A stretch of 64,000 bases of DNA, taken from Octopus sinensis (lineage: Eukaryota). Positions 3,087-53,276 of this stretch are shown here, piece after piece; the stretch's first letter is position 1, and every line of letters begins with the position of its first letter. The notes beneath the pieces were generated by a model that had not been told where the DNA came from, made no database searches, and was given only the letters and a program-made list of their open reading frames with translations. The translations under genes were made by a program, and so were the position numbers. The stretch spans positions 10,974,001-11,038,000 of the forward strand of contig NC_043021.1 in NCBI RefSeq assembly GCF_006345805.1, read 5' to 3'.

Positions 3087-3360
3087 CGAACGTCTTTTTA
3101 ATAATAGTAGTAATAAAATCATATTTCTTAGAGAACAGGATCAAATTTATTGCACCACATAAATTCAGTAGGGATTGTACATAACAAATGGAAATGAAAG
3201 TAATTATACTGAAAGTCTATATTCCCTTACGTCAGACAGACATAAGAAAAAAGACGCCTATTACTTTATTCATGTCCAGAAAACGCATTGTCGTCTAAAT
3301 ATTAGTTCAACAGTTATGTCACATATACACGTGTTGCAACTCATAATACAGAGATGTCTT

Positions 3361-6300
3361 GAAAGAAATTGGATGCCATTATTTTTTAAGGATGTGGCTG
3401 TGTGGTAAGAAGCTTGCTTCCCGACCACATGGTTCCGGGTTCAGTCCCATTGCGGGACAACTTTGGCCAGGTGTCTTCTACTATAGCCGTGGGGCCGACC
3501 AAAGCACTGTGGGTGAATTTGATAGATGGAAGCTGAATGAAAGTGGACGCCCTTGTTTTTGAACGATGTGGCTGTGTGGTAAGAAGCTTCTTTCCCGATC
3601 ACATGGTTCCGGGTTCGGTCCCATTGCGGGACAACTTTGGCAAGGTTTCTTCTACTATAGCCATGGGGCCGACCAAAGCACTGTGGGTGAATTTGATAGA
3701 TGGAAGCTGAATGAAAGTGGACGCCCTTGTTTTTGAACGATGTGGCTGTGTGGTAAGAAGCTTCTTTCCCGATCACATGGTTCCGGGTTCGGTCCCATTG
3801 CGGGACAACTTTGGCAAGGTTTCTTCTACTATAGCCGTGGGGCCGACCAAAGCACTGTGGGTGAATTTGATAGATGGAAGCTGAAAGAAAATTGACGCCC
3901 TTGTTTTTGGACGATGTGGCTGTGTGGTAAGAAGCTTCTTTCCCGATCACATGGTTCTGGGTTCGGTCCCATTGCGGGACAACTTTGGCCAGGTGTCTTC
4001 TACTATAGCCGTGGGGCCGACCAAAGCACTGTGGGTGAATTTGATAGATGGAAGCTGAAAGAAAATTGACGCCATTGTTTTTGAACGATGTGGCTGTGTG
4101 GTAAGAAGCTTCTTCCCGATCACATGGTTCTGGGTTCGGTCCCATTGCGGGACAACTTTGGCCAGGTGTCTTCTACTATAGCCGTGGGGCCGACCAAAGC
4201 ACTGTGGGTGAATTTGATAGATGGAAGCTGAATGAAAGTGGACGCCCTTGTTTTTGAACGATGTGGCTGTGTGGTAAGAAGCTTCTTTCCCGATCACATG
4301 GTTCCGGGTTCGGTCCCATTGCGGGACAACTTTGGCCAGGTGTCTTCTACTATAGCCGTGGGGCCGACCAAAGCACTGTGGGTGAATTTGATAGATGGAA
4401 GCTGAAAGAAAATTGACGCCATTGTTTTTGAACGATGTGGCTGTGTGGTAAGAAGCTTCTTTCCCGATCACATGGTTCTGGTTCGGTCCCATTGCGGGAC
4501 AACTTTGGCCAGGTGTCTTCTACTATAGCCGTGGGCCGACCAAAGCACTGTGGGTGAATTTGATAGATGGAAGCTGAATGAAAGTGGACGCCCTTGTTTT
4601 TGAACGATGTGGCTGTGTGGTAAGAAGCCTGCTTCCCGATCACATGGTTCCGGGTTCGGCCCCATTGCGGGACAACTTTGGCCAGGTGTCTTCTACTATA
4701 GCCGTGGGGCCGACCAAAGCACTGTGGGTGAATTTGATAGATGGAAGCTGAATGAAAGTGGACGCCCTTGTTTTTGAACGATGTGGCTGTGTGGTAAGAA
4801 GCTTCTTTCCCGATCACATGGTTCCGGGTTCAATCCCATTGCGGGACAACTTTGGCCAGGTGTCTTCTACTATAGCCGTGGGGCCGACCAAAGCACTGTG
4901 GGTGAATTTGATAGATGGAAGCTGAAAGAAAATTGACGCCATTGTTTTTGAACGATGTGGCTGTGTGGTAAGAAGCTTCTTTCCCGATCACATGGTTCTG
5001 GGTTCGGTCCCATTGCGGGACAACTTTGGCCAGGTGTCTTCTACTATAGCCGTGGGGCCGACCAAAGCACTGTGGGTGAATTTGATAGATGGAAGCTGAA
5101 TGAAAGTGGACGCCCTTGTTTTTGAACGATGTGGCTGTGTGGTAAGAAGCTTCTTTCCCGATCACATGGTTCCAGGTTCGGTCCCATTGCGGGACAACTT
5201 TGGCCAGGTGTCTTCTACTATAGCCGTGGGGCCGACCAAAGCACTGTGGGTGAATGTGATAGATGGAAGCTGAAAGAAAATTGACGCCATTGTTTTTGAA
5301 TGATGTGGCTGTGTGGTAAGAAGCTTCTTTCCCGATCACATGGTTCCAGGTTCGGTCCCATTGCGGGACAACTTTGGCCAGGTGTCTTCTACTATAGCCG
5401 TGGGGCCGACCAAAGCACTGTGGGTGAATTTGATAGATGGAAGCTGAATGAAAGTGGACGCCCTTGTTTTTGAACGATGTGGCTGTGTGGTAAGAAGCTT
5501 CTTTCCCGATCACATGGTTCCGGGTTCGGTCCCATTGCGGGACAACTTTGGCCAGGTGTCTTCTACTATAGCCGTGGGGCCGACCAAAGCACTGTGGGTG
5601 AATTGATAGATGGAAGCTGAAAGAAAATTGACGCCATTGTTTTTGAACGATGTGGCTGTGTGGTAAGAAGCTTCTTTCCCGATCACATGGTTCTGGGTTC
5701 GGTCCCATTGCGGGACAACTTTGGCCAGGTGTCTTCTACTATAGCCGTGGGGCCGACCAAAGCACTGTGGGTGAATTTGATAGATGGAAGCTGAATGAAA
5801 GTGGACGCCCTTGTTTTTGAACGATGTGGCTGTGTGGTAAGAAGCTTCTTTCCCGATCACATGGTTCCGGGTTCGGTCCCATTGCGGGACAACTTTGGCC
5901 AGGTGCCTTCTACTATAGCCGTGGGGCCGAGCAAAGCACTGTGGGTGAATTTGATAGATGGAAGCTGAAAGAAAATTGACGCCATTGTTTTTGAACGATG
6001 TGGCTGTGTGGTAAGAAGCTTCTTTCCCGATCACATGGTTCTGGGTTCGGTCCCATTGCGGGACAACTTTAGCCAGGTGTCTTCTACTATAGCCGTGGGG
6101 CCGACCAAAGCACTGTGGGTGAATTTGATAGATGGAAGCTGAATGAAAGTGGACGCCCTTGTTTTTGAACGATGTGGCTGTGTGGTAAGAAGCCTGCTTC
6201 CTGATCACATGGTTCCGGGTTCGGTCCCATTGCGGGACAACTTTGGCCAGTTGTCTTCTACTATAGCCGTGGGGCCGACCAAAGCACTGTGGGTGAATTT

Positions 6301-9300
6301 GATAGATGGAAGCTGAAAGAAAATTGACGCCATTGTTTTTGAACGATGTGGCTGTGTGGTAAGAAGCTTCTTTCCCGATCACATGGTTCTGGGTTCGGTC
6401 CCATTGCGGGACAACTTTGGCCAGGTGTCTTCTACTATAGCCGTGGGGCCGACCAAAGCACTGTGGGTGAATTTGATAGATGGAAGCTGAATGAAAGTGG
6501 ACGCCATTGTTTTTGAACGATGTGGCTGTGTGGTAAGAAGCCTGCTTCCTGATCACATGGTTCCGGGTTCGGTCCCATTGCGGGACAACTTTGGCCAGGT
6601 GTCTTCTACTATAGCCGTGGGACCGACCAAAGCACTGTGGGTGAATTTGATAGATGGAAGCTGAATGAAAGTGGATGCCATTGTTTTTGAACGATGTGGC
6701 TGTGTGGTAAGAAGCTTCTTTCCCGATCACATGGTTCCGGGTTCGGTCCCATTGTGGGACAACTTTGGCCAGGTGTCTTCTACTATAGCCGTGGGGCCGA
6801 CCAAAGCACTGTGGGTGAATTTGATAGATGGAAGCTGAAAGAAAATTGACGCCCTTGTTTTTGAACGATGTGGCTGTGTGGTAAGAAGCTTCTTTCCCGA
6901 TCACATGGTTCCGGGTTCGGTCCCATTGCGGGACAACTTTGGCCAGGTGTCTTCTACTATAGCCGTGGGGCCGACCAAAGCACTGTGGGTGAATTTGATA
7001 GATGGAAGCTGAAAGAAAATTGACGCCCTTGTTTTTGAACGATGTGGCTGTGTGGTAAGAAGCTTCTTTCCCGATCACATGGTTCCGGGTTCGGTCCCAT
7101 TGCGGGACAACTTTGGCCAGGTGTCTTCTACTATAGCCGTGGGGCCGACCAAAGCACTGTGGGTGAATTTGATAGATGGAAGCTGAAAGAAAATTGATGC
7201 CATTGTTTTTGAACGATGTGGCTGTGTGGTAAGAAGCTTCTTTCCCGATCACATGGTTCTGGGTTCGGTCCCATTGCGGGACAACTTTGGCAAGGTTTCT
7301 TCTACTATAGCCATGGGGCCGACCAAAGCACTGTGGGTGAATTTGATAGATGGAAGCTGAATGAAAGTGGACGCCCTTGTTTTTGAACGATGTGGCTGTG
7401 TGGTAAGAAGCTTCTTCCCGATCACATGGTTCCGGTTCGGTCCCATTGCGGGACAACTTTGGCCAGGGGTCTTCTACTATAGCCGTGGGGCCGACCAAAG
7501 CACTGTGGGTGAATTTGATAGATGGAAGCTGAAAGAAAATTGACGCCATTGTTTTTGAACGATGTGGCTGTGTGGTAAGAAGCTTCTTTCCCGATCACAT
7601 GGTTCTGGATTCGGTCCCATTGCGGGACAACTTTGGCCAGGTGTCTTCTACTATAGCCGTGGGCCGACCAAAGCACTGTGGGTGAATTTGATAGATGGAA
7701 GCTGAATGAAAGTGGACGCCCTGTTTTTGAACGATGTGGCTGTGTGGTAAGAAGCCTGCTTCCTGATCACATGGTTCTGGGTTCGGTCCCATTGCGGGAC
7801 AACTTTGGCCAGGTGTCTTCTACTATAGCCGTGGGGCCGACCAAAGCACTGTGGGTGAATTTGATAGATGGAAGCTGAATGAAAGTGGACGCCCTTGTTT
7901 TTGAACGATGTGGCTGTGTGGTAAGAAGCTTCTTTCCCGATCACATGGTTCTGGGTTCGGTCCCATTGCGGGACAACTTTGGCAAGGTTTCTTCTACTAT
8001 AGCCGTGGGGCCGACCAAAGCACTGTGGGTGAATTTGATAGATGGAAGCTGAAAGAAAATTGACGCCATTGTTTTTGAACGATGTGGCTGTGTGGTAAGA
8101 AGCTTCTTTCCCGATCACATGGTTCTGGGTTCGGTCCCATTGCGGGACAACTTTGGCCAGGTGCCTTCTACTATAGCCGTGGGGCCGACCAAAGCACTGT
8201 GCGTGAATTTGATAGATGGAAGCTGAATGAAAGTGGACGCCATTGTTTTTGAACGATGTGGCTGTGTGGTAAGAAGCTTCTTTCCCGATCACATGGTTCT
8301 GGGTTCGGTCCCATTGCGGGACAACTTTGGCCAGGTGTCTTCTACTATAGCCGTGGGGCCGACCAAAGCACTGTGGGTGAATTTGATAGATGGAAGCTGA
8401 ATGAAAGTGGACGCCATTGTTTTTGAACGATGTGGCTGCGTGGTAAGAAGCTTCTTTCCCGATCACATGGTTCTGGGTTCGGTCCCATTGCGGGACAACT
8501 TTGGCAAGGTTTCTTCTACTATAGCCGTGGGGCCGACCAAAGCACTGTGGGTGAATTTGATAGATGGAAGCTGAATGAAAGTGGACGCCAATGTTTTTGA
8601 ACGATGTGGCTGTGTGGTAAGAAGCTTCTTTCCCGATCACATGGTTCTGGGTTCGGTCCCATTGCGGGACAACTTTGGCAAGGTTTCTTCTACTATAGCC
8701 GTGGGGCCGACCAAAGCACTGTGGGTGAATTTGATAGATGGAAGCTGAATGAAAGTGGACGCCAATGTTTTTGAACGATGTGGCTGTGTGGTAAGAAGCT
8801 TCTTTCCCGATCACATGGTTCTGGGTTCGGTCCCATTGCGGGACAACTTTGGCCAGGTGTCTTCTACTATAGCCGTGGGGCCGACCAAAGCACTGTGGGT
8901 GAATTTGATAGATGGAAGCTGAATGAAAGTGGACGCCCTTGTTTTTGAACGATGTGGCTGTGTGGTAAGAAGCCTGCTTCCTGATCACATGGTTCCGGGT
9001 TCGGTCCCATTGCGGGACAACTTTGGCCAGGTGTCTTCTACTATAGCCGTGGGGCCGACCAAGGCACTGTGGGTGAATTTGATAGATGGAAGCTGAATGA
9101 AAGTGACGCCCTTGTTTTTGAACGATGTGGCTGTGTGGTAAGAAGCCTGCTTCCTGATCACATGGTTCTGGTTCGGTCCCATTGCGGGACAACTTTGGCC
9201 AGTGTCTTCTACTATAGCTGGGGCCGACCAAAGCACTGTGGGTGAATTTGATAGATGGAAGCTGAATGAAAGTGGACGCCCTTGTTTTTGAACGATGTGG

Positions 9301-12300
9301 CTGTGTGGTAAGAAGCCTGCTTCCTGATCACATGGTTCTGGGTTCGGTCCCATTGCGGGACAACTTTGGCAAGGTTTCTTCTACTATAGCCGTGGGGCCG
9401 ACCAAAGCACTGTGGGTGAATTTGATAGATGGAAGCTGAAAGAAAATTGACGCCCTTGTTTTTGAACGATGTGGCTGTGTGGTAAGAAGCCTGCTTCCTG
9501 ATCACATGGTTCCGGGTTCGGTCCCATTGCGGGACAACTTTGGCCAGGTGTCTTCTACTATAGCCGTGGGGCCGACCAAAGCACTGTGGGTGAATTTGAT
9601 AGATGGAAGCTGAATGAAAGTGGACGCCCTTGTTTTTGAACGATGTGGCTGTGTGGTAAGAAGCCTGCTTCCTGATCACATGGTTCTGGGTTCGGTCCCA
9701 CTGCGGGACAACTTTGGCCAGGTGTCTTCTACTATAGCCGTGGGGCCGACCAAAGCACTGTGGGTGAATTTGATAGATGGAAGCTGAATGAAAGTGGACG
9801 CCCTTGTTTTTGAACGATGTGGCTGTGTGGTAAGAAGCCTGCTTCCTGATCACATGGTTCTGGGTTCGGTCCCATTGCGGGACAACTTTGGCCAGGTGTC
9901 TTCTACTATAGCCGTGGGGCCGACCAAAGCACTGTGGGTGAATTTGATAGATGGAAGCTGAAAGAAAATTGACGCCCTTGTTTTTGAACGATGTGGCTGT
10001 GTGGTAAGAAGCTTCTTTCCCGATCACATGGTTCCGGTTCAATCCCATTGCGGGACAACTTTGGCCAGGTGTCTTCTACTATACTAGCCGTGGGGCCGAC
10101 CAAAGCACTGTGGGTGAATTTGATAGATGGAAGCTGAAGGAAAATTGACGCCATTGTTTTTGAACGATGTGGCTGTGTGGTAAGAAGCTTCTTTCCCGAT
10201 CACATGGTTCTGGGTTCGGTCCCATTGCGGGACAACTTTGGCCAGGTGTCTTCTACTATAGCCGTGGGGCCGACCAAAGCACTGTGGGTGAATTTGATAG
10301 ATGGAAGCTGAATGAAAGTGGACGCCCTTGTTTTTGAACGATGTGGCTGTGTGGTAAGAAGCTTCTTTCCCGATCACATGGTTCCAGGTTCGGTCCCATT
10401 GCGGGACAACTTTGGCCAGGTGTCTTCTCTACTATAGCCGTGGGGCCGACCAAAGCACTGTGGGTGAATGTGATAGATGGAAGCTGAAAGAAAATTGACG
10501 CCATTGTTTTTGAATGATGTGGCTGTGTGGTAAGAAGCTTCTTTCCCGATCACATGGTTCTGGGTTCGGTCCCATTGCGGGACAACTTTGGCCAGGTGTC
10601 TTCTACTATAGCCGTGGGGCCGACCAAAGCACTGTGGGTGAATTTGATAGATGGAAGCTGAATGAAAGTGGACGCCCTTGTTTTTGAACGATGTGGCTGT
10701 GTGGTAAGAAGCCTGCTTCCTGATCACATGGTTCTGGGTTCGGTCCCATTGCGGGACAACTTTGGCCAGGTGTCTTCTACTATAGCCGTGGGGCCGACCA
10801 AAGCACTGTGGGTGAATTTGATAGATGGAAGCTGAATGAAAGTGGACGCCCTTGTTTTTGAACGATGTGGCTGTGTGGTAAGAAGCTTCTTTCCCGATCA
10901 CATGGTTCTGGGTTCGGTCCCATTGCGGGACAACTTTGGCAAGGTTTCTTCTACTATAGCCGTGGGGCCGACCAAAGCACTGTGGGTGAATTTGATAGAT
11001 GGAAGCTGAAAGAAAATTGACGCCATTGTTTTTGAACGATGTGGCTGTGTGGTAAGAAGCTTCTTTCCCGATCACATGGTTCTGGGTTCGGTCCCATTGC
11101 GGGACAACTTTGGCCAGGTTCTTCTACTATAGCCGTGGGCCGACCAAAGCACTGTGGGTGAATTTGATAGATGGAAGCTGAATGAAAGTGGACGCCATTG
11201 TTTTTGAACGATGTGGCTGTGTGGTAAGAAGCTTCTTTCCCGATCACATGGTTCTGGGTTCGGTCCCATTGCGGGACAACTTTGGCCAGGTGTCTTCTAC
11301 TATAGCCGTGGGGCCGACCAAAGCACTGTGGGTGAATTTGATAGATGGAAGCTGAATGAAAGTGGACGCCATTGTTTTTGAACGATGTGGCTGTGTGGTA
11401 AGAAGCGTCTTTCCCGATCACATGGTTCTGGGTTCGGTCCCATTGCGGGACAACTTTGGCCAGGTGTCTTCTACTATAGCCGTGGGGCCGACCAAAGCAC
11501 TGTGGGTGAATTTGATAGATGGAAGCTGAATGAAAGTGGACGCCCTTGTTTTTGAACGATGTGGCTGTGTGGTAAGAAGCCTGCTTCCTGATCACATGGT
11601 TCCGGGTTCGGTCCCATTGCGGGACAACTTTGGCCAGGTGTCTTCTACTATAGCCGTGGGGCCGACCAAAGCACTGTGGGTGAATTTGATAGATGGAAGC
11701 TGAATGAAAGTGGACGCCCTTGTTTTTGAACGATGTGGCTGTGTGGTAAGAAGCCTGCTTCCTGATCACATGGTTCTGGGTTCGGTCCCATTGCGGGACA
11801 ACTTTGGCCAGGTGTCTTCTACTATAGCCGTGGGGCCGACCAAAGCACTGTGGGTGAATTTGATAGATGGAAGCTGAATGAAAGTGGACGCCCTTGTTTT
11901 TGAACGATATGGCTGTGTGGTAAGAAGCCTGCTTCCTGATCACATGGTTCTGGGTTCGGTCCCATTGCGGGACAACTTTGGCAAGGTTTCTTCTACTATA
12001 GCCGTGGGGCCGACCAAAGCACTGTGGGTGAATTTGATAGATGGAAGCTGAAAGAAAATTGACGCCCTTGTTTTTGAACGATGTGGCTGTGTGGTAAGAA
12101 ACCTGCTTCCTGATCACATGGTTCCGGGTTCGGTCCCATTGCGGGACAACTTTGGCCAGGTGTCTTCTACTATAGCCGTGGGGCCGACCAAAGCACTGTG
12201 GGTGAATTTGATGGATGGAAGCTGAATGAAAGTGGACGCCCTTGTTTTTGAACGATGTGCCTGTGTGGTAAGAAGCCTGCTTCCTGATCACATGGTTCTG

Positions 12301-15300
12301 GGTTCGGTCCCACTGCGGGACAACTTTGGCCAGGTGTCTTCTACTATAGCCGTGGGGCCGACCAAAGCACTGTGGGTGAATTTGATAGATGGAAGCTGAA
12401 TGAAAGTGGACGCCCTTGTTTTTGAACGATGTGGCTGTGTGGTAAGAAGCTTCTTTCCCGATCACATGGTTCCAGGTTCGGTCCCATTGCGGGACAACTT
12501 TGGCCAGGTGTCTTCTACTATAGCCGTGGGGCCGACCAAAGCACTGTGGGTGAATGTGATAGATGGAAGCTGAAAGAAAATTGACGCCATTGTTTTTGAA
12601 TGATGTGGCTGTGTGGTAAGATGCTTCTTTCCCGATCACATGGTTCTGGGTTCGGTCCCATTGCGGGACAACTTTGGCCAGGTGTCTTCTACTATAGCCG
12701 TGGGGCCGACCAAAGCACTGTGGGTGAATTTGATAGATGGAAGCTGAAAGAAAATTGACGCCCTTGTTTTTGAACGATGTGGCTGTGTGGTAAGAAGCCT
12801 GCTTCCTGATCACATGGTTCCGGGTTCGGTCCCATTGCGGGACAACTTTGGCCAGGTGTCTTCTACTATAGCCGTGGGGCCGACCAAAGCACTGTGGGTG
12901 AATTTGATAGATGGAAGCTGAAAGAAAATTGACGCCATTGTTTTTGAACGATGTGGCTGTGTGGTAAGAAGCTTCTTTCCCGATCACATGGTTCTGGGTT
13001 CGGTCCCATTGCGGGACAACTTTGGCCAGGTGTCTTCTACTATAGCCGTGGGGCCGACCAAAGCACTGTGGGTGAATTTGATAGATGGAAGCTGAATGAA
13101 AGTGGACGCCCTTGTTTTTGAATGATGTGGCTGTGTGGTAAGAAGCTTCTTTCCCGATCACATGGTTCCGGGTTCGGTCCCATTGCGGGACAACTTTGGC
13201 CAGGTGTCTTCTACTATAGCCGTGGGGCCGACCAAAGCACTGTGGGTGAATTTGATAGATGGAAGCTGAAAGAAAATTGACGCCATTGTTTCTGAACGAT
13301 GTGGCTGTGTGGTAAGAAGCTTCTTTCCCGATCACATGGTTCCGGGTTCGGTCCCATTGCGGGACAACTTTGGCCAGGTGTCTTCTACTATAGCCGTGGG
13401 GCCGACCAAAGCACTGTGGGTGAATTTGATAGATGGAAGCTGAAAGAAAATTGACGCCATTGTTTTTGAACGATGTGGCTGTGTGGTAAGAAGCTTCTTT
13501 CCCGATCACATGGTTCTGGGTTCGGTCCCATTGCGGGACAACTTTGGCCAGGTGTCTTCTACTATAGCCGTGGGGCCGACCAAGCACTGTGGGTGAATTT
13601 GATAGATGGAAGCTGAAAGAAAATTGACGCCATTGTTTTTGAACGATGTGGCTGTGTGGTAAGAAGCTTCTTTCCCGATCACATGGTTCTGGGTTCGGTC
13701 CCATTGCGGGACAACTTTGGCCAGGTGTCTTCTACTATAGCCGTGGGGCCGACCAAAGCACTGTGGGTGAATTTGATAGATGGAAGCTGAATGAAAGTGG
13801 ACGCCCTTGTTTTTGAACGATGTGGCTGTGTGGTAAGAAGCTTCTTTCCGATCACATGGTTCCGGGTTCGGTCCCATTGCGGGACAACTTTGGCCAGGTG
13901 TCTTCTACTATAGCCGTGGGGCCGACCAAAGCACTGTGGGTGAATTTGATAGATGGAAGCTGAAAGAAAATTGACGCCATTGTTTTTGAACGATGTGGCT
14001 GTGTGGTAAGAAGCTTCTTTCCCGATCACATGGTTCTGGGTTCGGTCCCATTGCGGGACAACTTTGGCCAGGTGTCTTCTACTATAGCCGTGGGGCCGAC
14101 CAAAGCACTGTGGGTGAATTGATAGATGGAAGCTGAATGAAAGTGGACGCCCTTGTTTTTGAACGATATGGCTGTGTGGTAAGAAGCCTGCTTCCTGATC
14201 ACATGGTTCTGGGTTCGGTCCCATTGCGGGACAACATTGGCCAGGTGTCTTCTACTATAGCCGTGGGGCCGACCAAAGCACTGTGGGTGAATTTGATAGA
14301 TGGAAGCTGAATGAAAGTGGACGCCCTTGTTTTTGAACGATGTGGCTGTGTGGTAAGAAGCTTCTTTCCCGATCACATGGTTCTGGGTTCGGTCCCATTG
14401 CGGGACAACTTTGGCAAGGTTTCTTCTACTATAGCCGTGGGGCCGACCAAAGCACTGTGGGTGAATTTGATAGATGGAAGCTGAAAGAAAATTGACGCCA
14501 TTGTTTTTGTACGATGTGGCTGTGTGGTAAGAAGCTTCTTTCCCGATCACATGGTTCTGGGTTCGGTCCCATTGCGGGACAACTTTCGCCAGGTGTCTTC
14601 TACTATAGCCGTGGGCCGACCAAAGCACTGTGGGTGAATTTGATAGATGGAAGCTGAATGAAAGTGGACGCCATTGTTTTTGAACGATGTGGCTGTGTGG
14701 TAAGAAGCTTCTTTCCCGATCACATGGTTCTGGGTTCGGTCCCATTGCGGGACAACTTTGGCCAGGTGTCTTCTACTATAGCCGTGGGGCCGACCAAAGC
14801 ACTGTGGGTGAATTTGATAGATGGAAGCTGAATGAAAGTGGACGCCATTGTTTTTGAACGATGTGGCTGTGTGGTAAGAAGCTTCTTTCCGATCACATGG
14901 TTCTGGGTTCGGTCCCATTGCGGGACAACTTTGGCAAGGTTTCTTCTACTATAGCCGTGGGGCCGACCAAAGCACTGTGGGTGAATTTGATAGATGGAAG
15001 CTGAATGAAAGTGGACGCCAATGTTTTTGAACGATGTGGCTGTGTGGTAAGAAGCTTCTTTCTCGATCACATGGTTCTGGCGGGTTCGGTCCCATTGCGG
15101 GACAACTTTGGCAAGGTTTCTTCTACTATAGCCGTGGGGCCGACCAAAGCACTGTGGGTGAATTTGATAGATGGAAGCTGAATGAAAGTGGACGCCAATG
15201 TTTTTGAACGATGTGGCTGTGTGGTAAGAAGCTTCTTTCTCATCACATGGTTCTGGGTTCGGTCCCATTGCGGGACAACTTTGGCCAGGTGTCTTCTACT

Positions 15301-18300
15301 ATAGCCGTGGGGCCGACCAAAGCACTGTGGGTGAATTTGATAGATGGAAGCTGAATGAAAGTGGACGCCCTTGTTTTTGAACGATGTGGCTGTGTGGTAA
15401 GAAGCCTGCTTCCTGATCACATGGTTCCGGGTTCGGTCCCATTGCGGGACAACTTTGGCCAGGTGTCTTCTACTATAGCCGTGGGGCCGACCAAGGCACT
15501 GTGGGTGAATTTGATAGATGGAAGCTGAATGAAAGTGGACGCCCTTGTTTTTGAACGATGTGGCTGTGTGGTAAGAAGCCTGCTTCCTGATCACATGGTT
15601 CTGGGTTCGGTCCCATTGCGGGACAACTTTGGCAGGTGTCTTCTACTATAGCCGTGGGGCCGACCAAAGCACTGTGGGTGAATTTGATAGATGGAAGCTG
15701 AATGAAAGTGGACGCCCTTGTTTTTGAACGATGTGGCTGTGTGGTAAGAAGCCTGCTTCCTGATCACATGGTTCTGGGTTCGGTCCCATTGCGGGACAAC
15801 TTTGGCAAGGTTTCTTCTACTATAGCCGTGGGGCCGACCAAAGCACTGTGGGTGAATTTGATAGATGGAAGCTGAAAGAAAATTGACGCCATTGTTTCTG
15901 AACGATGTGGCTGTGTGGTAAGAGCTTCTTTCCCGATCACATGGTTCCGGGTTCGGTCCCATTGCGGGACAACTTTGGCCAGGTGTCTTCTACTATAGCC
16001 GTGGGGCCGACCAAAGCACTGTGGGTGAATTTGATAGATGGAAGCTGAAAGAAAATTGACGCCATTGTTTTTGAACGATGTGGCTGTGTGGTAAGAAGCT
16101 TCTTTCCCGATCACATGGTTCTGGGTTCGGTCCCATTGCGGGACAACTTTGGCCAGGTGTCTTCTACTATAGCCGTGGGGCCGACCAAAGCACTGTGGGT
16201 GAATTTGATAGATGGAAGCTGAAAGAAAATTGACGCCATTGTTTTTGAACGATGTGGCTGTGTGGTAAGAAGCTTCTTTCCCGATCACATGGTTCTGGGT
16301 TCGGTCCCATTGCGGGACAACTTTGGCCAGGTGTCTTCTACTATAGCCGTGGGGCCGACCAAAGCACTGTGGGTGAATTTGATAGATGGAAGCTGAATGA
16401 AAGTGGACGCCCTTGTTTTTGAACGATGTGGCTGTGTGGTAAGAAGCTTCTTTCCCGATCACATGGTTCCGGGTTCGGTCCCATTGCGGGACAACTTTGG
16501 CCAGGTGTCTTCTACTATAGCCGTGGGGCCGACCAAAGCACTGTGGGTGAATTTGATAGATGGAAGCTGAAAGAAAATTGACGCCATTGTTTTTGAACGA
16601 TGTGGCTGTGTGGTAAGAAGCTTTTCCCGATCACATGGTTCCGGGTTCGGTCCCATTGCGGGACAACTTTGGCCAGGTGTCTTCTACTATAGCCGTGGGG
16701 CCGACCAAAGCACTGTGGGTGAATTTGATAGATGGAAGCTGAATGAAAGTGGACGCCCTTGTTTTTGAACGATATGGCTGTGTGGTAAGAAGCCTGCTTC
16801 CTGATCACATGGTTCTGGGTTCGGTCCCATTGCGGGACAACTTTGGCCAGGTGTCTTCTACTATAGCCGTGGGGCCGACCAAAGCACTGTGGGTGAATTT
16901 GATAGATGGAAGCTGAATGAAAGTGGACGCCCTTGTTTTTGAACGATGTGGCTGTGTGGTAAGAAGCTTCTTCCCGATCACATGGTTCTGGGTTCGGTCC
17001 CATTGCGGGACAACTTTGGCAAGGTTTCTTCTACTATAGCCGTGGGGCCGACCAAAGCACTGTGGGTGAATTTGATAGATGGAAGCTGAAAAAAAGACGC
17101 CATTGTTTTTGTACGATGTGGCTGTGTGGTAAGAAGCTTCTTTCCCGATCACATGGTTCTGGGTTCGGTCCCATTGCGGGACAACTTTGGCCAGGTGTCT
17201 TCTACTATAGCCGTGGGGCCGACCAAAGCACTGTGGGTGAATTTGATAGATGGAAGCTGAATGAAAGTGGACGCCATTGTTTTTGAACGATGTGGCTGTG
17301 TGGTAAGAAGCTTCTTTCCCGATCACATGGTTCTGGGTTCGGTCCCATTGCGGGACAACTTTGGCCAGGTGTCTTCTACTATAGCCGTGGGGCCGACCAA
17401 AGCACTGTGGGTGAATTTGATAGATGGAAGCTGAATGAAAGTGGACGCCATTGTTTTTGAACGATGTGGCTGTGTGGTAAGAAGCTTCTTTCCCGATCAC
17501 ATGGTTCTGGGTTCGGTCCCATTGCGGGACAACTTTGCAAGGTTTCTTCTACTATAGCCGTGGGGCCGACCAAAGCACTGTGGGTGAATTTGATAGATGG
17601 AAGCTGAATGAAAGTGGACGCCAATGTTTTTGAACGATGTGGCTGTGTGGTAAGAAGCTTCTTTCTCAATCACATGGTTCTGGGTTCGGTCCCATTGCGG
17701 GACAACTTTGGCCAGGTGTCTCTACTATAGCCGTGGGGCCGACCAAAGCACTGTGGGTGAATTTGATAGATGGAAGCTGAATGAAAGTGGACGCCCTTGT
17801 TTTTGAACGATGTGGCTGTGTGGTAAGAAGCCTGCTTCCTGATCACATGGTTCCGGGTTCGGTCCCATTGCGGGACAACTTTGGCCAGGTGTCTTCTACT
17901 ATAGCCGTGGGGCCGACCAAGGCACTGTGGGTGAATTTGATAGATGGAAGCTGAATGAAAGTGGACGCCCTTGTTTTTGAACGATGTGGCTGTGTGGTAA
18001 GAAGCCTGCTTCCTGATCACATGGTTCTGGGTTCGGTCCCATTGCGGGACAACTTTGGCAAGGTGTCTTCTACTATAGCCGTGGGGCCGACCAAAGCACT
18101 GTGGGTGAATTTGATAGATGGAAGCTGAATGAAAGTGGACGCCCTTGTTTTTGAACGATGTGGCTGTGTGGTAAGAAGCCTGCTTCCTGATCACATGGTT
18201 CTGGGTTCGGTCCCATTGCGGGACAACTTTGGCAAGGTTTCTTCTACTATAGCCGTGGGCCGACCAAGCACTGTGGGTGAATTTGATAGATGGAAGCTGA

Positions 18301-21300
18301 AAGAAAATTGACGCCCTTGTTTTTGAACGATGTGGCTGTGTGGTAAGAAGCCTGCTTCCTGATCACATGGTTCGGGTTCGGTCCCATTGCGGGACAACTT
18401 TGGCCAGGTGTCTTCTACTATAGCCGTGGGGCCGACCAAAGCACTGTGGGTGAATTTGATAGATGGAAGCTGAATGAAAGTGGACGCCCTTGTTTTTTGA
18501 ACGATGTGGCTGTGTGGTAAGAAGCCTGCTTCCTGATCACATGGTTCTGGGTTCGGTCCCATTGCGGGACAACTTTGGCAAGGTTTCTTCTACTATAGCC
18601 GTGGGGCCGACCAAAGCACTGTGGGTGAATTTGATAGATGGAAGCTGAAAGAAAATTGACGCCCTTGTTTTTGAACGATGTGGCTGTGTGTGTAAGAAGC
18701 CTGCTTCCTGATCACATGGTTCCGGGTTCGGTCCCATTGCGGGACAACTTTGGCCAGGTGTCTTCTACTATAGCCGTGGGGCCGACCAAAGCACTGTGGT
18801 GAATTTGATAGATGGAGCTGAATGAAAGTGGACGCCCTTGTTTTTGAACGATGTGGCTGTGTGGTAAGAAGCCTGCTTCCTGATCACATGGTTCTGGGTC
18901 GGTCCCACTGCGGGACAACTTTGGCCAGGTGTCTTCTACTATAGCCGTGGGGCCGACCAAAGCACTGTGGGTGAATTTGATAGATGGAAGCTGAATGAAA
19001 GTGGACGCCCTTGTTTTTGAACGATGTGGCTGTGTGGTAAGAAGCCTGCTTCCTGATCACATGGTTCTGGGTCGGTCCCATTGCGGGACAACTTTGGCCA
19101 GGTGTCTTCTACTATAGCCGTGGGGCCGACCAAAGCACTGTGGGTGAATTTGATAGATGGAAGCTGAATGAAAGTGGACGCCTTGTTTTTGAACGATGTG
19201 GCTGTGTGGTAAGAAGCTTCTTTCCCGATCACATGGTTCTGGGTTCGGTCCCATTGCGGGACAACTTTGGCAAGGTTTCTTCTACTATAGCCGTGGGGCC
19301 GACCAAAGCACTGTGGGTGAATTTGATAGATGGAAGCTGAAAGAAAATTGACGCCATTGTTTTTGTACGATGTGGCTGTGTGGTAAGAAGCTTCTTTCCC
19401 GATCACATGGTTCTGGGTTCGGTCCCATTGCGGGACAACTTTGGCCAGGTGTCTTCTACTATAGCCGTGGGGCCGACCAAAGCACTGTGGGTGAATTTGA
19501 TAGATGGAAGCTGAATGAAAGTGGACGCCATTGTTTTTGAACGATGTGGCTGTGTGGTAAGAAGCTTCTTTCCCGATCACATGGTTTGGGTTCGGTCCCA
19601 TTGCGGGACAACTTTGGCCAGGTGTCTTCTACTATAGCCGTGGGGCCGACCAACACTGTGGGTGAATTTGATAGATGGAAGCTGAATGAAAGTGGACGCC
19701 ATTGTTTTTGAACGATGTGGCTGTGTGGTAAGAAGCTTCTTCCCGATCACATGGTTCTGGGTTCGGTCCCATTGCGGGACAACTTTGGCAAGGTTTCTTC
19801 TACTATAGCCGTGGGGCCGACCAAAGCATTGTGGGTGAATTGATAGATGGAAGCTGAATGAAAGTGGACGCCAATGTTTTTGAACGATGTGGCTGTGTGG
19901 TAAGAAGCTTCTTCCCATCACATGGTTCTGGGTTCGGTCCCATTGCGGGACAACTTTGGCCAGGTGTCTTCTACTATAGCCGTGGGGCCGACCAAAGCAC
20001 TGTGGGTGAATTTGATAGATGGAAGCTGAATGAAAGTGGACGCCCTTGTTTTTGAACGATGTGGCTGTGTGGTAAGAAGCCTGCTTCCTGATCACATGGT
20101 TCCGGGTTCGGTCCCATTGCGGGACAACTTTGGCCAGGTGTCTTCTACTATAGCCGTGGGGCCGACCAAGCACGTGGGTGAATTTGATAGATGGAAGCTG
20201 AATGAAAGTGGACGCCCTTGTTTTTGAACGATGTGGCTGTGTGGTAAGAAGCCTGCTTCCTGATCACATGGTTCTGGGTTCGGTCCCATTGCGGGACAAC
20301 TTTGGCCAGGTGTCTTCTACTATAGCCGTGGGGCCGACCAAAGCACTGTGGGGGAATTTGATAGATGGAAGCTGAATGAAAGTGGACGCCCTTGTTTTTG
20401 AACGATGTGGCTGTGTGGTAAGAAGCCTGCTTCCTGATCACATGGTTCTGGGTTCGGTCCCATTGCGGGCCAACTTTGGCAAGGTTTCTTCTACTATAGC
20501 CGTGGGCCGACCAAAGCACTGTGGGTGAATTTGATAGATGGAAGCTGAAAGAAAATTGACGCCCTTGTTTTGAACGATGTGGCTGTGTGGTAAGAAGCTG
20601 CTTCCTGATCACATGGTTCCGGGTTCGGTCCCATTGCGGGACAACTTTGGCCAGGTGTCTTCTACTATAGCCGTGGGGCCGACCAAAGCACTGTGGGTGA
20701 ATTTGATAGATGGAAGCTGAATGAAAGTGGACGCCCTTGTTTTTGAACGATGTGGCTGTGTGGTAAGAAGCCTGCTTCCTGATCACATGGTTCCGGGTTC
20801 GGTCCCATTGCGGGACAACTTTGGCCAGGTGTCTTCTACTATAGCCGTGGGGCCGACCAAGGCACTGTGGGTGAATTTGATAGATGGAAGCTGAATGAAA
20901 GTTGACGCCCTTGTTTTTGAACGATGTGGCTGTGTGGTAAGAAGCTGCTTCCGATCACATGGTTCTGGGTTCGGTCCCATTGCGGGACAACTTTGGCCAG
21001 GTGTCTTCTACTATAGCCGTGGGGCCGACCAAAGCACTGTGGGTGAATTTGATAGATGGAAGCTGAATGAAAGTGGACGCCCTTGTTTTGAACGATGTGG
21101 CTGTGTGGTAAGAAGCCTGCTTCCTGATCACATGGTTCTGGGTTCGGTCCCATTGCGGGACAACTTGGCAAGGTTCTTCTTCTACTATAGCGTGGGGCCG
21201 ACCAAAGCACTGTGGGTGAATTGATAGATGGAAGCTGAAAGAAAATTGACGCCCTTGTTTTGAACGATGTGGCTGTGTGGTAAGAAGCCTGCTTCCTGAT

Positions 21301-24300
21301 CACATGGTTCCGGGTTCGGTCCCATTGCGGGACAACTTTGGCCAGGTGTCTTCTACTATAGCCGTGGGGCCGACCAAAGCACTGTGGGTGAATTTGATAG
21401 ATGGAAGCTGAAAGGTGGACGCCCTTGTTTTTGAACGATGTGGCTGTGTGGTAAGAAGCCTGCTTCCTGATCACATGGTTCTGGGTTCGGTCCCACTGCG
21501 GGACAACTTTGGCCAGGTGTCTTCTACTATAGCCGTGGGCCGACCAAAGCACTGTGGGTGAATTTGATAGATGGAAGCTGAATGAAAGTGGACGCCCTTG
21601 TTTTTGAACGATGTGGCTGTGTGGTAAGAAGCCTGCTTCCTGATCACATGGTTCTGGGTTCGGTCCCATTGCGGGACAACTTTGGCCAGGTGTCTTCTAC
21701 TATAGCCGTGGGGCCGACCAAAGCACTGTGGGTGAATTTGATAGATGGAAGCTGAAAGAAAATTGACGCCCTTGTTTTTGAACTATGTGGCTGTGTGGTA
21801 AGAAGCTTCTTTCCCGATCACATGGTTCCGGGTTCAATCCCATTGCGGGACAACTTTGGCCAGGTGTCTTCTACTATAGCCGTGGGGCCGACCAAAGCAC
21901 TGTGGGTGAATTTGATAGATGGAAGCTGAAAGAAAATTGACGCCATTGTTTTTGAACGATGTGGCTGTGTGGTAAGAAGCTTCTTTCCCGATCACATGGT
22001 TCTGGGTTCGGTCCCATTGCGGGACAACTTTGGCCAGGTGTCTTCTACTATAGGCGTGGGGCCGACCAAAGCACTGTGGGTGAATTTGATAGATGGAAGC
22101 TGAATGAAAGTGGACGCCCTTCTTTTTGAACGATGTGGCTGTGTGGTAAGAAGCTTCTTTCCCGATCACATGGTTCCAGGTTCGGTCCCATTGCGGGACA
22201 ACTTTGGCCAGGTGTCTTCTACTATAGCCGTGGGGCCGACCAAAGCATTGTGGGTGAATGTGATAGATGGAAGCTGAAAGAAAATTCACGCCATTGTTTT
22301 TGAATGATGTGGCTGTGGGTAAGAAGCTTCTTTCCCGATCACATGGTTTGGGTTCGGTCCCATTGCGGGACAACTTTGGCCAGGTGTCTCTACTATAGCC
22401 GTGGGGCCGACCCAAGCACTGTGGGTGAACTTGATAGATGGAAGCTGAATGAAAGTGGACGCCCTTGTTTTTGAACGATGTGGCTGTGTGGTAAGAAGCC
22501 TGCTTCCTGATCACATGGTTCTGGGTTCGGTCCCATTGCAGGACAACTTTGGCCAGGTGTCTTCTACTATAGCCGTGGGGCCGACCAAAGCACTGTGGGT
22601 GAATTTGATAGATGGAAGCTGAATGAAAGTGGACGCCCTTGTTTTTGAACGATGTGGCTGTGTGGTAAGAAGCTTCTTTCCCGATCACATGGTTCTGGGT
22701 TCGGTCCATTGCGGGACAACTTTGGCAAGGTTTCTTCTACTATAGCCGTGGGGCCGACACCAAAGCACTGTGGGTGAATTTGATAGATGGAAGCTGAAAG
22801 AAAATTGACGCCATTGTTTTTGAACGATGTGGCTGTGTGGTAAGAAGCTTCTTTCCCGATCACATGGTTCTGGGTTCGGTCCCATTGCGGGACAACTTTG
22901 GCCAGGTGTCTTCTACTATAGCCGTGGGGCCGACCAAAGCACTGTGGGTGAATTTGATAGATGGAAGCTGAATGAAAGTGGACGCCATTGTTTTTGAACG
23001 ATGTGGCTGGTGGTAAGAAGCTTCTTCCCGATCACATGGTTCTGGGTTCGGTCCCATTGCGGGACAACTTTGGCCAGGTGTCTTCTACTATAGCCGTGGG
23101 GCCGACCAAAGCACTGTGGGTGAATTTGATAGATGGAAGCTGAATGAAAGTGGACGCCATTGTTTTTGAACGATGTGGCTGTGTGGTAAGAAGCTTCTTT
23201 CCCGATCACATGGTTCTGGGTTCGGTCCCATTGCGGGACAACTTTGGCAAGGTTTCTTCTACTATAGCCGTGGGGCCGACCAAAGCACTGTGGGTGAATT
23301 GATAGATGGAAGCTGAATGAAAGTGGACGCAATGTTTTTGAACGATGTGGCTGTGTGGTAAGAAGCTTCTTTCCCGATCACATGGTTCTGGGTTCGGTCC
23401 CATTGCGGGACAACTTTGGCCAGGTGTCTTCTACTATAGCCGTGGGGCCGACCAAAGCACTGTGGGTGAATTTGATAGATGGAAGCTGAATGAAAGTGGA
23501 CGCCCTGTTTTTTGAACGATGTGGCTGTGTGGTAAGAAGCCTGCTTCCTGATCACATGGTTCCGGGTTCGGTCCCATTGCGGGACAACTTTGGCCAGGTG
23601 TCTTCTACTATAGCCGTGGGGCCGACCAAAGCACTGTGGGTGAATTTGATAGATGGAAGCTGAATGAAAGTGGACGCCCTTGTTTTTGAACGATGTGGCT
23701 GTGTGGTAAGAAGCTGCTTCCTGATCACATGGTTCTGGGTTCGGTCCCATTGCGGGACAACTTTGGCCAGGTGTCTTCTACTATAGCCGTGGGGCCGACC
23801 AAAGCACTGTGGGTGAATTTGATAGATGGAAGCTGAATGAAAGTGGACGCCCTTGTTTTTGAACGATGTGGCTGTGTGGTAAGAAGCTTCTTTCCTTCCG
23901 ATCACATGGTTCTGGGTTCGGTCCCATTGCGGGACAACTTTGGCAAGGTTTCTTCTACTATAGCCGTGGGGCCGACCAAAGCACTGTGGGTGAATTTGAT
24001 AGATGGAAGCTGAATGAAAGTGGACGCCATGTTTTTGAACGATGTGGCTGTGTGGTAAGAAGCTTCTTCCCGATCACATGGTTCTGGGTTCGGTCCCATT
24101 GCGGGACAACTTTGGCCAGGTTCTTCTACTATAGCCGTGGGGCCGACCAAAGCACTGTGGGTGAATTTGATAGATGGAAGCTGAATGAAAGTGGACGCCC
24201 TTGTTTTTGAACGATGTGGCTGTGTGGTAAGAAGCCTGCTTCCTGATCACATGGTTCCGGTTCGGTCCCATTGCGGGACAACTTTGGCCAGGTGTCTTCT

Positions 24301-25750
24301 ACTATAGCCGTGGGGCCGACCAAAGCACTGTGGGTGAATTTAATGATAGATGGAAGCTGAATGAAAGTGGACGCCCTTGTTTTTGAACGATGTGGCTGTG
24401 TGGTAAGAAGCCTGCTTCCTGATCACATGGTTCTGGGTTCGGTCCCATTGCGGGACAACTTTGGCCAGGTGTCTCTACTATAGCCGTGGGGCCGACCAAA
24501 GCACTGTGGGTGAATTTGATAGATGGAAGCTGAATGAAAGTGGACGCCCTTGTTTTTGAACGATGTGGCTGTGTGGTAAGAAGCCTGCTTCCTGATCACA
24601 TGGTTCTGGGTTCGGTCCCATTGCGGGACAACTTTGGCAAGGTTTCTTCTACTATAGCCGTGGGGCCGACCAAAGCACTGTGGGTGAATTTGATAGATGG
24701 AAGCTGAAAGAAAATTGACGCCCTTGTTTTTGAACGATGTGGCTGTGTGGTAAGAAGCCTGCTTCCTGATCACATGGTTCTGGGTTCGGTCCCATTGCGG
24801 GACAACTTTGGCCAGGTGTCTTCTACTATAGCCGTGGGGCCGACCAAAGCACTGTGGGTGAATTTGATAGATGGAAGCTGAATGAAAGTGGACGCCCTTG
24901 TTTTTGAACGATGTGGCTGTGTGGTAAGAAGCCTGCTTCCTGATCACATGGTTCTGGGTTCGGTCCCATTGCGGGACAACTTTGGCCAGGTGTCTTCTAC
25001 TATAGCCGTGGGGCCGACCAAAGCACTGTGGGTGAATTTGATAGATGGAAGCTGAAGAAAATTGACGCCCTGTTTTTTGTGATGTGGCTGTGTGGTAAGA
25101 AGCCTGCTTCCTGATCACATGGTTCCGGGTTCGGTCCCATTGCGGGACAACTTTGGCCAGGTGTCTTCTACTATAGCCGTGGGGCCGACCAAAGCACTGT
25201 GGGTGAATTTGATAGATGGAAGCTGAAAGAAAATTGACGCCCTTGTTTTTGAACGATGTGGCTGTGTGGTAAGAAGCCTGCTTCCTGATCACATGGTTCC
25301 GGGTTCGGTCCCATTGCGGGACAACTTTGGCAAGGTTTCTTCTACTATAGCCGTGGGGCCGACCAAAGCACTGTGGGTGAATTTGATAGATGGAAGCTGA
25401 AAGAAAATTGACGCCATTGTTTTTGAACGATGTGGCTGTGTGGTAAGAAGCTTCTTTCCCGATCACATGGTTCCGGGTTCGGTCCCATTGCGGGACAACT
25501 TTGGCAAGGTTTCTTCTACTATAGCCATGGGGCCGACCAAAGCACTGTGGGTGAATTTGATAGATGGAAGCTGAATGAAAGTGGACGCCCTTGTTTTTGA
25601 ATGATGTGGCTGTGTGGTAAGAAGCTTGCTTCCCGACCACATGGTTCCGGGGGCGGTCCCACTGCGTGACACCTTGGGCAGGTGTCTTCTACTATAGCCA
25701 TGGGGCTGACCGAAGCACTGTGGGTGAATTTGATAGATGGAAGCTGAAAA
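3361..25750 (+). repeat. SINE-derived satellite: ~128 tandem copies of a 174-bp unit
   Basis: GATGTGGCTGTGTGGTAAG recurs at 3391, 3565, 3739 ... 25603 (22212 bp / 174 = 127.7); unit = SINE A head and body to GGAAGCTGAA plus a spacer containing TTTTT. Confidence 0.98.
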
Positions 25751-25775
25751 AAGCTCATCATATTTATGTGTGTGT

Positions 25776-26160
25776 GTGGCTGTGTGGTAAGAAACTTGCT
25801 TTCCGACCACATGGTTCCAGGTTCAGTACCACTGCGTAACACCTTGGGTAGGTGTCTTCTACTATAGCCGTGGGGCCGACCAAAGCATTGTGGGTGAATT
25901 TCATAGACGGAAGATGAAAGAAGCTCATTGTATTTATGTGGGTGTGTGCGTTAGTGTGTTTGTGTGTCCCACCATCGTTTGACGACTGATGGTGTATTTG
26001 CGTCCCTGTGACTTAGCGGTTCAGCAAAAGAAACGACTGAATAAGTATCAGGCTTTAAAAACAAAATGCAAGTGCTGGGGTCGATTCATTCAACTAAAAT
26101 GCTTCAAGGAGGTGCTCCAGTATGGCCGCAGTCTAATGACTGAAGGAAGTAAATGATAAC
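25776..26160 (+). mobile_element. SINE family A, full-length older variant directly after the array (progenitor-like)
   Basis: Shares array-type bases (GCCGTGGGGCCGACC, GTGGGTGAATTT) and continues into the normal 3' half ...GGTGCTCCAGTATGGCCGCAGTCTAATGACTGAA. Confidence 0.85.
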
Positions 26161-26169
26161 AGATAGAAG

Positions 26170-26499: not shown

Positions 26500-26913
26500 G
26501 CGGTGAGCTAACAGAAACGTTAGCACACCAGGTGAAATGTGTAGCCATATTTCGTCTGCCATTACGTTCTGAGTTCAAATTCCGCCAAGGTCGACTTTGC
26601 CTTTCATCCTTTCGGGGTCGATTAAATGAGTACCAGTTACGCACTGGGGTCGATATAATCGACTTAATCCGTTTGTCTGTCCTTGTTTGTCCTCTAAGTG
26701 TTTAGCCCCTTGTGGGTAGTAAAGAAATAGGTATTTTGCCAGTCACTACGTTCTGAGTTCAAATTCCACCGAGGTCGACTTTGCCTTTTATCCTTTCGGG
26801 GTCGATTATTTAAGTACCAGTTGCGTACTGGGGTTGATGTAATCGAATTAATCCCTTTGTCTGTCTTTGTTTGTCCCCTCTATATTTAACCCCTTGTGGG
26901 TAGTAAAGAAATA
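26500..26913 (+). mobile_element. SINE family B, head plus two tandem body/tail units
   Basis: GCGGTGAGCTAACAGAAACGTTAGC head; unit repeats after GTAAAGAAATAG|GTATTT. Confidence 0.85.
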
Positions 26914-53234: not shown

Positions 53235-53276
53235 CCTTTTCTCTCTCCTTTTCCTTTTTTGCACTTTTATCGGAAC

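Follow-up and report, generated by a model that had tools for sequence, protein, structure and literature searches.

The window, which is the whole 64-kb stretch of octopus DNA analysed here, contains a SINE-derived satellite (sSat), in which the head of a tRNA-type SINE and a short T5-bearing spacer are repeated in tandem. The array is probably a SINE-head satellite confined to this single locus, with a T5 captured from the flanking DNA and an expansion by unequal crossing-over, and its units are probably not working Pol III genes. Ordinary duplication of its copies likely accounts for its growth, and the apparent Pol III stop is likely chance flanking DNA placed on the start site. The assignment to the sSats is based on the following observations. 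The unit is homologous to a part of a SINE dispersed in the same genome; the inner monomers, of which an sSat should have at least four uniform ones, number 128 and are homogenised above the level of the dispersed copies; and the terminal monomer, unit 130 (~390 bp), reaches the end of the SINE.

TRF detected a single array at 3360-25922 with a period of 174, 130.0 copies and 95% matches, and splitting at the A boxes also gave 130 head-to-tail units, 82 of which are exactly 174 bp long. The repeat structure itself is far above the chance expectation. The A-box T is located at 3395 in the first unit, and at 25433, 25607 and 25777 in the last three. The preliminary description had reported ~128 units, each of 174 bp, at 3361..25750. 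The tandem array, the period and the left edge agree with our results, but the count is 130, the unit length is not uniform, and the feature continues beyond 25750 with a full-length SINE to ~26,165. Each unit is composed of ~140 bp of tRNA-type SINE head and a 34-bp spacer with the T5 (Table 1). Genome searches with array-specific sequence gave 115/115 and 120/120 matches inside the window, indicating a single locus. At the right end, a (TG)n tail links unit 129 to unit 130, which shows 70-76% identity to dispersed full-length copies across ~390 bp. No target-site duplication was found around the founding SINE (unit 130), where the flank match is only 7 nt.

Table 1. Features of the SINE-head array (positions are those of the window)
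Feature	Position	Strand	Remark
Left edge, 34 bp with T6 at 3382-3387	3361..3394	+	Spacer-like; likely the DNA that lay 5' of the SINE when it inserted
128 homogenised units, SINE head (A box, B box, start of central domain) and T5 spacer	3395..25606	+	
A-box-like element, example from unit 2	3569..3579	+	T for consensus A, like the parent SINE
B-box-like element, example from unit 2	3612..3622	+	G for consensus A, like the parent
T5, example at the end of unit 1	3556..3560	+	-13..-9 from the next A-box T
Unit 129, a SINE head with weaker homogenisation and without T5 spacer	25607..25776	+	Microsatellite tail joins unit 130
Unit 130, trailing monomer, old full-length copy of the parent SINE	25777..26165	+	

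The inner units differ from each other by 3.7% on average (6.4 substitutions per 174), and are thus ~96% homogenised, while the edge units are not. Blocks of 12 units are duplicated at lags 37 and 68, and the longest such run in 300 shuffles was 7. A strict higher-order repeat was rejected, because the best lag means (5.2, against 6.4 overall) were near the shuffled minimum of 5.06; only irregular block duplications are present. CpG transitions are enriched (7/16 versus 7/75 C/G sites, p=0.002; one of the seven may be a retained ancestral A). This decay pattern suggests a germline-methylated repeat, and octopus satellites are known to be relatively methylated (PMC9476566). Variable sites make up 3/27 of the positions in the boxes and T5 and 28/147 of the rest, which is not a significant difference (Fisher p=0.24; range p=0.21-0.24). 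Compared with the parent, the boxes differ at 0/22 positions in unit 1 and 1/22 in unit 10, while the overall differences are 21 and 26/147 (P~0.03 and 0.08), although this comparison is biased since the locus had been chosen for intact boxes.

The parent SINE is very abundant, with 120,773 exact heads in the genome, and has young dispersed copies (66 of them differ from their majority by a median of 6%). The array unit differs from this majority at 21-26/147 positions. The head, central stretch and microsatellite-containing body of the parent resemble an octopus SINE of the CORE type, to which it may be related. The tRNA-derived SINEs OK, OR1 and OR2 of octopus, reportedly described by Ohshima and Okada in 1994, are likewise very abundant and of the tRNA type, and are putative counterparts of the parent. 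PMC4758252 and PMC4824008, which cite that work, differ as to which of OR1 and OR2 belongs to the CORE group.

The origin from a SINE head with A- and B-like boxes, as proposed earlier, was supported by the similarity to the dispersed heads, and the boxes have a tRNA-like spacing in nearly all units. The A box TGGCTGTGTGG is exact in 125/130 units, and the B-box core GTTCGGTCCC is found in 119/130. The Pol III consensus sequences are TRGYnnAnnnG for the A box and GWTCRAnnC for the B box (PMC4333407). A B box matching the consensus, GTTCAATCCC, occurs in only three units (9, 39 and 107); the other 127/130 lack the consensus A, as the preliminary description had cautioned. The A box also misses its consensus A, which was absent from those caveats. 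Both mismatches are present in the parent SINE and are therefore inherited, and at the R position the array B box additionally has G where the parent has A. The perfect B box is not enriched in the array (3/130 units versus 3/66 dispersed copies). These mismatches alone do not kill the promoter, because they are common to young dispersed copies that must have been transcribed.

The distribution of T runs along the unit was largely as first described. A run of T>=5 lies within the final 25 bp of 123/128 inner units and a run of T>=4 in 126/128, while an internal T4 was found in 1/128, and thus a T4-free body followed by a T run, as a Pol III gene cluster needs, is present. Such a cluster also needs a terminator-free start ~10-12 nt upstream of the A box, and here the T5 occupies -13..-9. 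The T run ends 8 nt ahead of the next A-box T in 125/128 junctions. The 5' end of the parent SINE is at -11/-10 and is overlapped by the T5, in line with the earlier caution that the T5 may overlap the start. The dispersed parents have a GGCGCAGGAG-type leader at the position of the T5, and a T5 within 30 nt upstream was observed in only 3/66 of them, which agrees with the earlier statement that the parent lacks the T5 here. Genome-wide, 2,593 of 60,290 forward-strand SINE heads (4.3%) have a T5 within ~21 nt upstream, and in the non-array DNA of the window 97 of 1,111 34-nt tiles contain one. Any flank that is captured would thus contain a T5 by chance in 4-9% of cases.

The T5 is likely a captured flank, as had been suggested, because the spacer matches the left flank of the locus: the 34 bp at the left edge are identical to the spacer preceding unit 5 at 28/34 positions. 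The sequence further left does not resemble the unit. From these alignments, the T5 is likely a passenger from the SINE's own 5' flank. Alternatively, the spacer could have originated from a decayed SINE tail plus leader. In a genome search 3090-3392 was single-copy, with no second repeat copy that would show the empty site.

A possible course of events starts from the old SINE copy at the right end and the tail-joined dimer of units 129 and 130, both of which are observed. A 7-nt match, GAAAGAA, between SINE position ~141-147 and the flank may have seeded a duplication of flank plus head, which likely fused the first ~140 bp of the SINE with the 34 bp adjoining it on the 5' side. Unequal crossing-over then likely expanded the array; such exchange would give the observed recurrence of blocks with up to 12 units. 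Pol III starting at the start of the parent would initiate within the T run or immediately ahead of it, and would abort. Unit-length RNA would accordingly be scarce, because the T5 replaces the leader of the parent.

The same SINE is found in tandem elsewhere in the genome, with at least 1,459 exact tail-to-head junctions. Triple-head matches number 1,342 genome-wide, of which 113 come from the 130-unit array, and the comparison of array sizes covers the first 100 of these 1,342 matches. One sister array consists of at least 482 units of 37 bp (at least 17.8 kb) with the A box only, and a T4 or B box was detected in 0/481 units. Three sister arrays with a 165-bp unit have 7-15 units each and no T4, and among three further arrays, two have no T4 units and the third has 1/8. 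Outside the 130-unit array, six T4-bearing junctions were found, each as one match, and the four that were inspected belong to dimers at most. Among the examined arrays that retain both boxes, the 130-unit array is the largest and the sole one with a T run. In the genome searches the array variant gave no dispersed daughter copies, all matches being inside the window; this says little on transcription, because the unit is without the 3' tail of the SINE.

Assembled contigs from runs presumed to be RNA, although no run with the sequence is recorded as such, cover the whole unit. A 204-nt contig from run X3 spans a unit junction across the T5, with 63 letters on the short side. This contig is likely read-through or DNA; the contigs carry neither ends nor strand and are blind to a 165-nt RNA. 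Contig depths over the array are dominated by dispersed SINE copies, and represent neither copy number nor expression. The unique left flank at 3092-3363 had no cover in any of the 4 runs examined out of 24, which is uninformative because the contigs were filtered. Any RNA detected would likely reflect a longer transcript that reads through the array, or carried-over DNA. The predicted fold of the unit showed no extra stability against shuffles (z 0.24), and no tRNA (ARAGORN) and no Rfam family at gathering score was found in it. Matches to Rfam sR30 and CRISPR were far under the gathering scores, with E-values of 0.3-8 at chance level, and were rejected.

The preliminary description had proposed a cluster of self-contained Pol III cassettes. 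In such a cluster, transcription would start after the T5, at the G at -8, and stop at the next T5 to give an RNA of ~165-170 nt, which we consider unlikely. The box spacing in nearly all units and the T runs described above fit this reading, the boxes have diverged from the parent a little less than the remainder (P 0.03-0.08), and precedents exist in the Xenopus OAX and newt PolIII/TAN repeats (PMC10702118) and in human snaR-A (PMC2094060). A start at G(-8) is geometrically possible and, with termination at the following T5, would yield ~170 nt of RNA. However, the T5 covers the start of the parent, and -8 is nearer to the A box than the Alu start at -12 (PMC4333407). Moreover, with a site of ~50 bp (PMC4333407), TFIIIB would occupy the last third of the preceding unit, and neighbours may interfere with each other. 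The cassette proposal was not borne out in other respects either: the boxes and T5 are without significant constraint among units, the RNA would have no structure, the X3 contig crosses the T5, equally large sister arrays amplified without B box or terminator, and T4 junctions elsewhere remained unamplified. It is similarly unlikely that a dead SINE, by capturing a T run from its flank, gave rise to 128 genes in tandem that encode a new RNA of ~170 nt and in which terminator and start share bases.

A non-transcribed landing array for TFIIIC, acting as a boundary between divergent genes, is also unlikely. The array lies at ~11.0 Mb of a 28.9-Mb contig, that is, mid-contig (contig ends may not be telomeres), and is not evidently subtelomeric; a subtelomeric or heterochromatic site is a trend among sSats and not a rule. 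The divergently oriented neighbours are an EGF-repeat gene on the left, ~49 kb away, and an SLC34-like gene on the right, ~55 kb away, and no exons of host genes were found within the 64-kb window. The location between the 5'-most detected exons of these two genes and the 128 near-consensus B boxes in 22 kb would suit a boundary. On the other hand, 127/130 B boxes lack the consensus A and the perfect variant has not spread, ~120,000 dispersed heads present the same site, and the CpG decay suggests methylation. It is very improbable that the array is real but distorted in length or unit order by long-read assembly. Single-base deletions are more frequent in the right half of the array (11-19 per 16 units) than in the left (3-8), as is typical of unpolished reads, but the variant haplotypes are structured, with duplicated 12-unit blocks, and array-type unit sequence is present in independent runs of several studies. 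Such distortion would alter the copy number only, and not the existence of the array. The flank-derived, exchange-expanded SINE-head satellite is therefore the explanation that we prefer.

A literature search, which missed most subscription journals, found no published account of an octopus SINE satellite. On the preferred reading, the array extends the SINE-derived satellites, known from reptiles and as short bivalve tandems, to long arrays in octopus, and its birth junction, a probable flank capture at a 7-nt match, is still readable. The series formed from one SINE (dimers, 7-15-mers, the 130-mer with boxes and T5, and the A-box-only array of at least 482 units) offers convenient material for studying how satellites are born, and suits asking whether promoter parts affect amplification. 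If the Pol III reading were true, the locus would be a clean birth of an ncRNA cluster from a satellite, with the start directly behind the terminator. In squamates, sSat units measure 70-290 nt and derive from a portion of a tRNA SINE; subvariants alternate, loci with hundreds of units are ~94% homogeneous, and there are single giant loci (PMC10702118). The octopus array matches this architecture and shares with them the long terminal monomer reaching the SINE end and the extra non-SINE piece, which is ~30-44 nt in some squamate units, but it differs in its invertebrate host, the retention of both boxes, the gain of a T5, and the restriction of the variant to one mid-contig locus that is not evidently subtelomeric. 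The tandem HCD-SINEs of bivalves, as described in PMC11481361, are likewise molluscan and have units truncated at one 3' position, a flank-derived separator and a last copy with a complete tail; their arrays have 2-15 units with TSD spacers, in contrast to the 130 units of the octopus array, for which no TSD was detected. The amphibian Pol III tandems (Xenopus OAX/satellite I, newt PolIII/TAN, Rana/polIII and Hy/polIII) also have internal promoters of the tRNA type, as summarised in PMC10702118. PolIII/TAN is transcribed in vitro, whereas the octopus array is known from sequence; the octopus units are shorter, and their parent SINE is identified here while that of the amphibian repeats is given there as uncertain. 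Human snaR-A is also SINE-related and tandem with an intragenic Pol III promoter (PMC2094060). However, the snaR repeat units of 5.3 kb have room for TFIIIB and a separate terminator, and the snaR genes make a structured RNA, whereas in the octopus array the start overlaps the terminator and any RNA would lack structure.

The tandem array in the octopus window was detected by TRF as a single array at 3360-25922, with a period of 174, 130 copies and 95% matches. Cutting at the A box also gave 130 units, 82 of which were 174 bp and the remainder 170-177 bp, and the count of about 128 units in the preliminary description is corrected accordingly, while the tandem array itself stands. The A-box-like 11-mer was exact in 125/130 units and the B-box-like core was present in 119/130. 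A run of T>=5 closed 123 of the 128 inner units, the run stopped 8 nt before the following A-box T in 125 of these 128, and one of the 128 had an internal T4. Thus, two boxes per unit and a T5 before the next unit, without longer internal T runs, had been described correctly. The units differed pairwise by 3.7% on average. ARAGORN and Rfam recognised no tRNA or RNA family in the array, and the unit fold was no more stable than those of shuffled sequences (z 0.24). Two array-specific words gave 115 and 120 matches in the genome, all of them inside the window, and therefore the array-specific sequence is confined to one locus. Single-base deletions per 16 units numbered 3-8 in the left half of the array versus 11-19 in the right (window ~14,300-25,600), an excess that is likely to be unpolished long-read error.

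The initial ~140 bp of the unit is part of a very abundant tRNA-type SINE, whose head (exact 16-nt word) occurs 120,773 times in the 2.7-Gb assembly and which may be one of octopus OK/OR1/OR2. For comparison, 66 dispersed heads were sampled: the loci listed first on contig C1 supplied 30, and the 200 kb surrounding the window supplied 36. In these, the 5' end of the parent SINE, with a AGGCGCAGGAG-type leader, lies at -11/-10 relative to the A-box T. The OK/OR1/OR2 family is cited, with no sequence, in the accessible parts of PMC4758252 and PMC4824008. Against the consensus TRGYnnAnnnG (A) and GWTCRAnnC (B) given in an excerpt of PMC4333407, both boxes of the array depart, and both departures are inherited from the parent, because dispersed copies share the identical A box and have GTTCAGTCC as their commonest B box (43/66). 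The G for A noted earlier in the B box is therefore real but inherited, and the A box departs too; the only change made in the array is at the R position.

The GAAAGAA that opens the left edge of the array also closes the SINE part of the unit, and the sequence left of this edge is single-copy and unlike the unit. At the other end, unit 129 is joined to unit 130 via a microsatellite tail. In the simplest history, a duplication at the 7-nt GAAAGAA match would have fused the SINE head with 34 bp from its 5' flank, and unequal exchange would then have expanded the flank-plus-head unit. Such expansion would account for the 12-unit blocks that repeat at lags 37 and 68, while the longest in 300 shuffles was 7. 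A strict higher-order period was rejected, as none appeared in the unit comparisons. The match of the left edge to the spacer supports the capture of flank proposed previously, although the spacer could instead be a decayed SINE tail plus leader. Under either origin the T5 does not come from the parent SINE, as had been stated.

No host exon was found in the window. To the left of the array, an EGF-repeat gene on the minus strand has its exons ending ~49 kb away, and to the right, plus-strand SLC34-like exons begin at ~55 kb (both named by eye from translations). Since these divergent exons flank the array and the window shows none, the array sits between two divergent genes or inside the 5' intron of one. 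The near-identical EGF-like exons would represent recent exon duplication. More ~184-bp tandems of the second SINE family were seen in the adjoining 200 kb.

Features of the array, its surroundings and related arrays (C2, C4 and C25 are contigs; C25 carries the window)
Feature	Position	Strand	Details
EGF-repeat gene	C25:10,890,141-10,928,760	-	14 or more EGF-like exons matched by pattern, some of them near-identical to one another
SLC34-like sodium-phosphate cotransporter exons	C25:11,055,500-11,068,000	+	named by eye from motifs
Array left edge	window 3361-3394		28/34 positions match spacer
Unit 130, full-length old SINE copy	window 25,777-~26,165		70-76% to dispersed copies
Second SINE family, ~184-bp tandems	window 26,563-26,913 and 46,381-47,386		1.9 and 5.8 copies
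Tigger/pogo-type transposase DNA-binding-region-like fragment	window 34,203-34,610	-	by eye
Non-LTR retrotransposon	window 51,540-56,700	+	first ORF of 564 aa followed by parts of an endonuclease and a reverse transcriptase in several frames; by eye
Three arrays, near-identical 165-bp SINE-head unit	C2 ~188.446, ~197.359, ~198.151 Mb		15, 7, 7 units; both boxes, no T4
Minisatellite from parent SINE leader and A box only	C4:132,014,155 to beyond 132,032,000		at least 482 x 37 bp, at least 17.8 kb, 99% identical, no terminator

Of 60,290 forward-strand SINE heads, 2,593 (4.3%) are preceded by a T5 within ~21 nt, and when the non-array DNA of the window is cut into 1,111 tiles of 34 nt, 97 contain one. 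SINE tandems gave at least 1,459 exact tail-to-head junctions genome-wide (counted as matches rather than loci), as well as 1,342 triple-head matches, 113 of which belong to the array. T4-bearing junction matches numbered 44, with 38 in the array and six single ones elsewhere; the four of these six that were inspected were dimers at most. Three further sister arrays had T4 in 0/9, 1/8 and 0/5 units. Because a sister array can be large without a terminator and the four outside T4 junctions inspected are dimers at most, large amplification requires no cassette, and a T run does not bring amplification. The 165-bp arrays at separate loci of C2 suggest a small multi-locus satellite family. Among the matches listed were also two tandem repeats with the SINE A-box word, a short-period minisatellite of >14 kb (C3:167,118,058-167,132,527) and a 163-bp unit joining the parent SINE leader to other sequence (C4:1,223,080-1,223,575).

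The array is a real feature with an ordinary mechanism, and is probably a passive satellite; that its form was shaped by assembly distortion is very improbable. The proposal that each unit is a self-contained Pol III cassette, a gene for a small RNA, is favoured by the array being, among the box-bearing arrays inspected (the listing gave the first 100 of the 1,342 triple matches), both the largest and the sole one with a T run. However, the T5 occupies -13 to -9, over the parent's own 5' end, so that the suspected overlap with the start site is supported, and it also covers the Alu start at -12 (PMC4333407, in part). A polymerase initiating at the parent's start would begin inside or just ahead of the terminator, although a start at G(-8) would clear the T5 and yield a product of ~170 nt, in keeping with an RNA gene cluster. 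Variable sites numbered 3/27 in boxes and T5 versus 28/147 elsewhere (alleles in at least two units, p=0.24), or 7/27 versus 53/147 with singletons (p=0.21), and a perfect B box occurred in 3/130 units, the same rate as in dispersed copies (3/66). As a weak and ascertainment-biased hint of function, the boxes were closer to the parent than the whole unit (0/22 positions differing in unit 1 and 1/22 in unit 10 versus 14-18% overall; P 0.03, 0.08). With the T5 on the start site, this variability and amplification of cassette-free sister arrays, the self-contained cassette is not supported; an RNA gene cluster is unlikely, and a TFIIIC landing array only slightly less so.

Four of 24 listed sequencing runs were compared with the flank plus unit 1; three of them, each from a different study, are putatively RNA, and the fourth is unclassified. 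Each of the three RNA-guessed runs gave an inner-unit contig of 204 nt that differs from unit 1 at 6-7 positions, the usual inter-unit distance; 204 nt, or 174 + 30, would be the length expected of a closed loop of 31-mers. The contig of one of them (X3) jumps from 3564 back to 3391, has 63 letters on its shorter side and spans the T5. The run contigs carry no transcript ends, and because the X3 contig bridges the T5, its material is read-through or DNA rather than unit-length RNA, the RNA origin of the runs being guessed. Transitions were more frequent at CpG (7/16, one case possibly ancestral) than at other C/G sites (7/75, p=0.002), which suggests germline methylation of the array. In O. 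bimaculoides, gene bodies are methylated and methylation is relatively higher in satellites, according to an excerpt of PMC9476566.

Searches of the accessible literature brought up no account of a SINE satellite in octopus. The array belongs to the SINE-derived satellites and is similar to a type-2 Pol III gene cluster, one defining feature of which it lacks; snaR-A, a working model of a tandem Pol III cluster, has 5.3-kb units (PMC2094060, in part). Bivalve SINE tandems comprise 2-15 units in the portion of PMC11481361 available, as compared with 130 here. The consulted part of PMC10702118, in which amphibian Pol III-type tandem repeats are also catalogued, describes squamate SINE-derived satellites with the same build as the array, i.e., partial SINE units with extra pieces of 14-44 nt, a long terminal monomer and alternating subvariants, at loci of 320 to >1,200 units.
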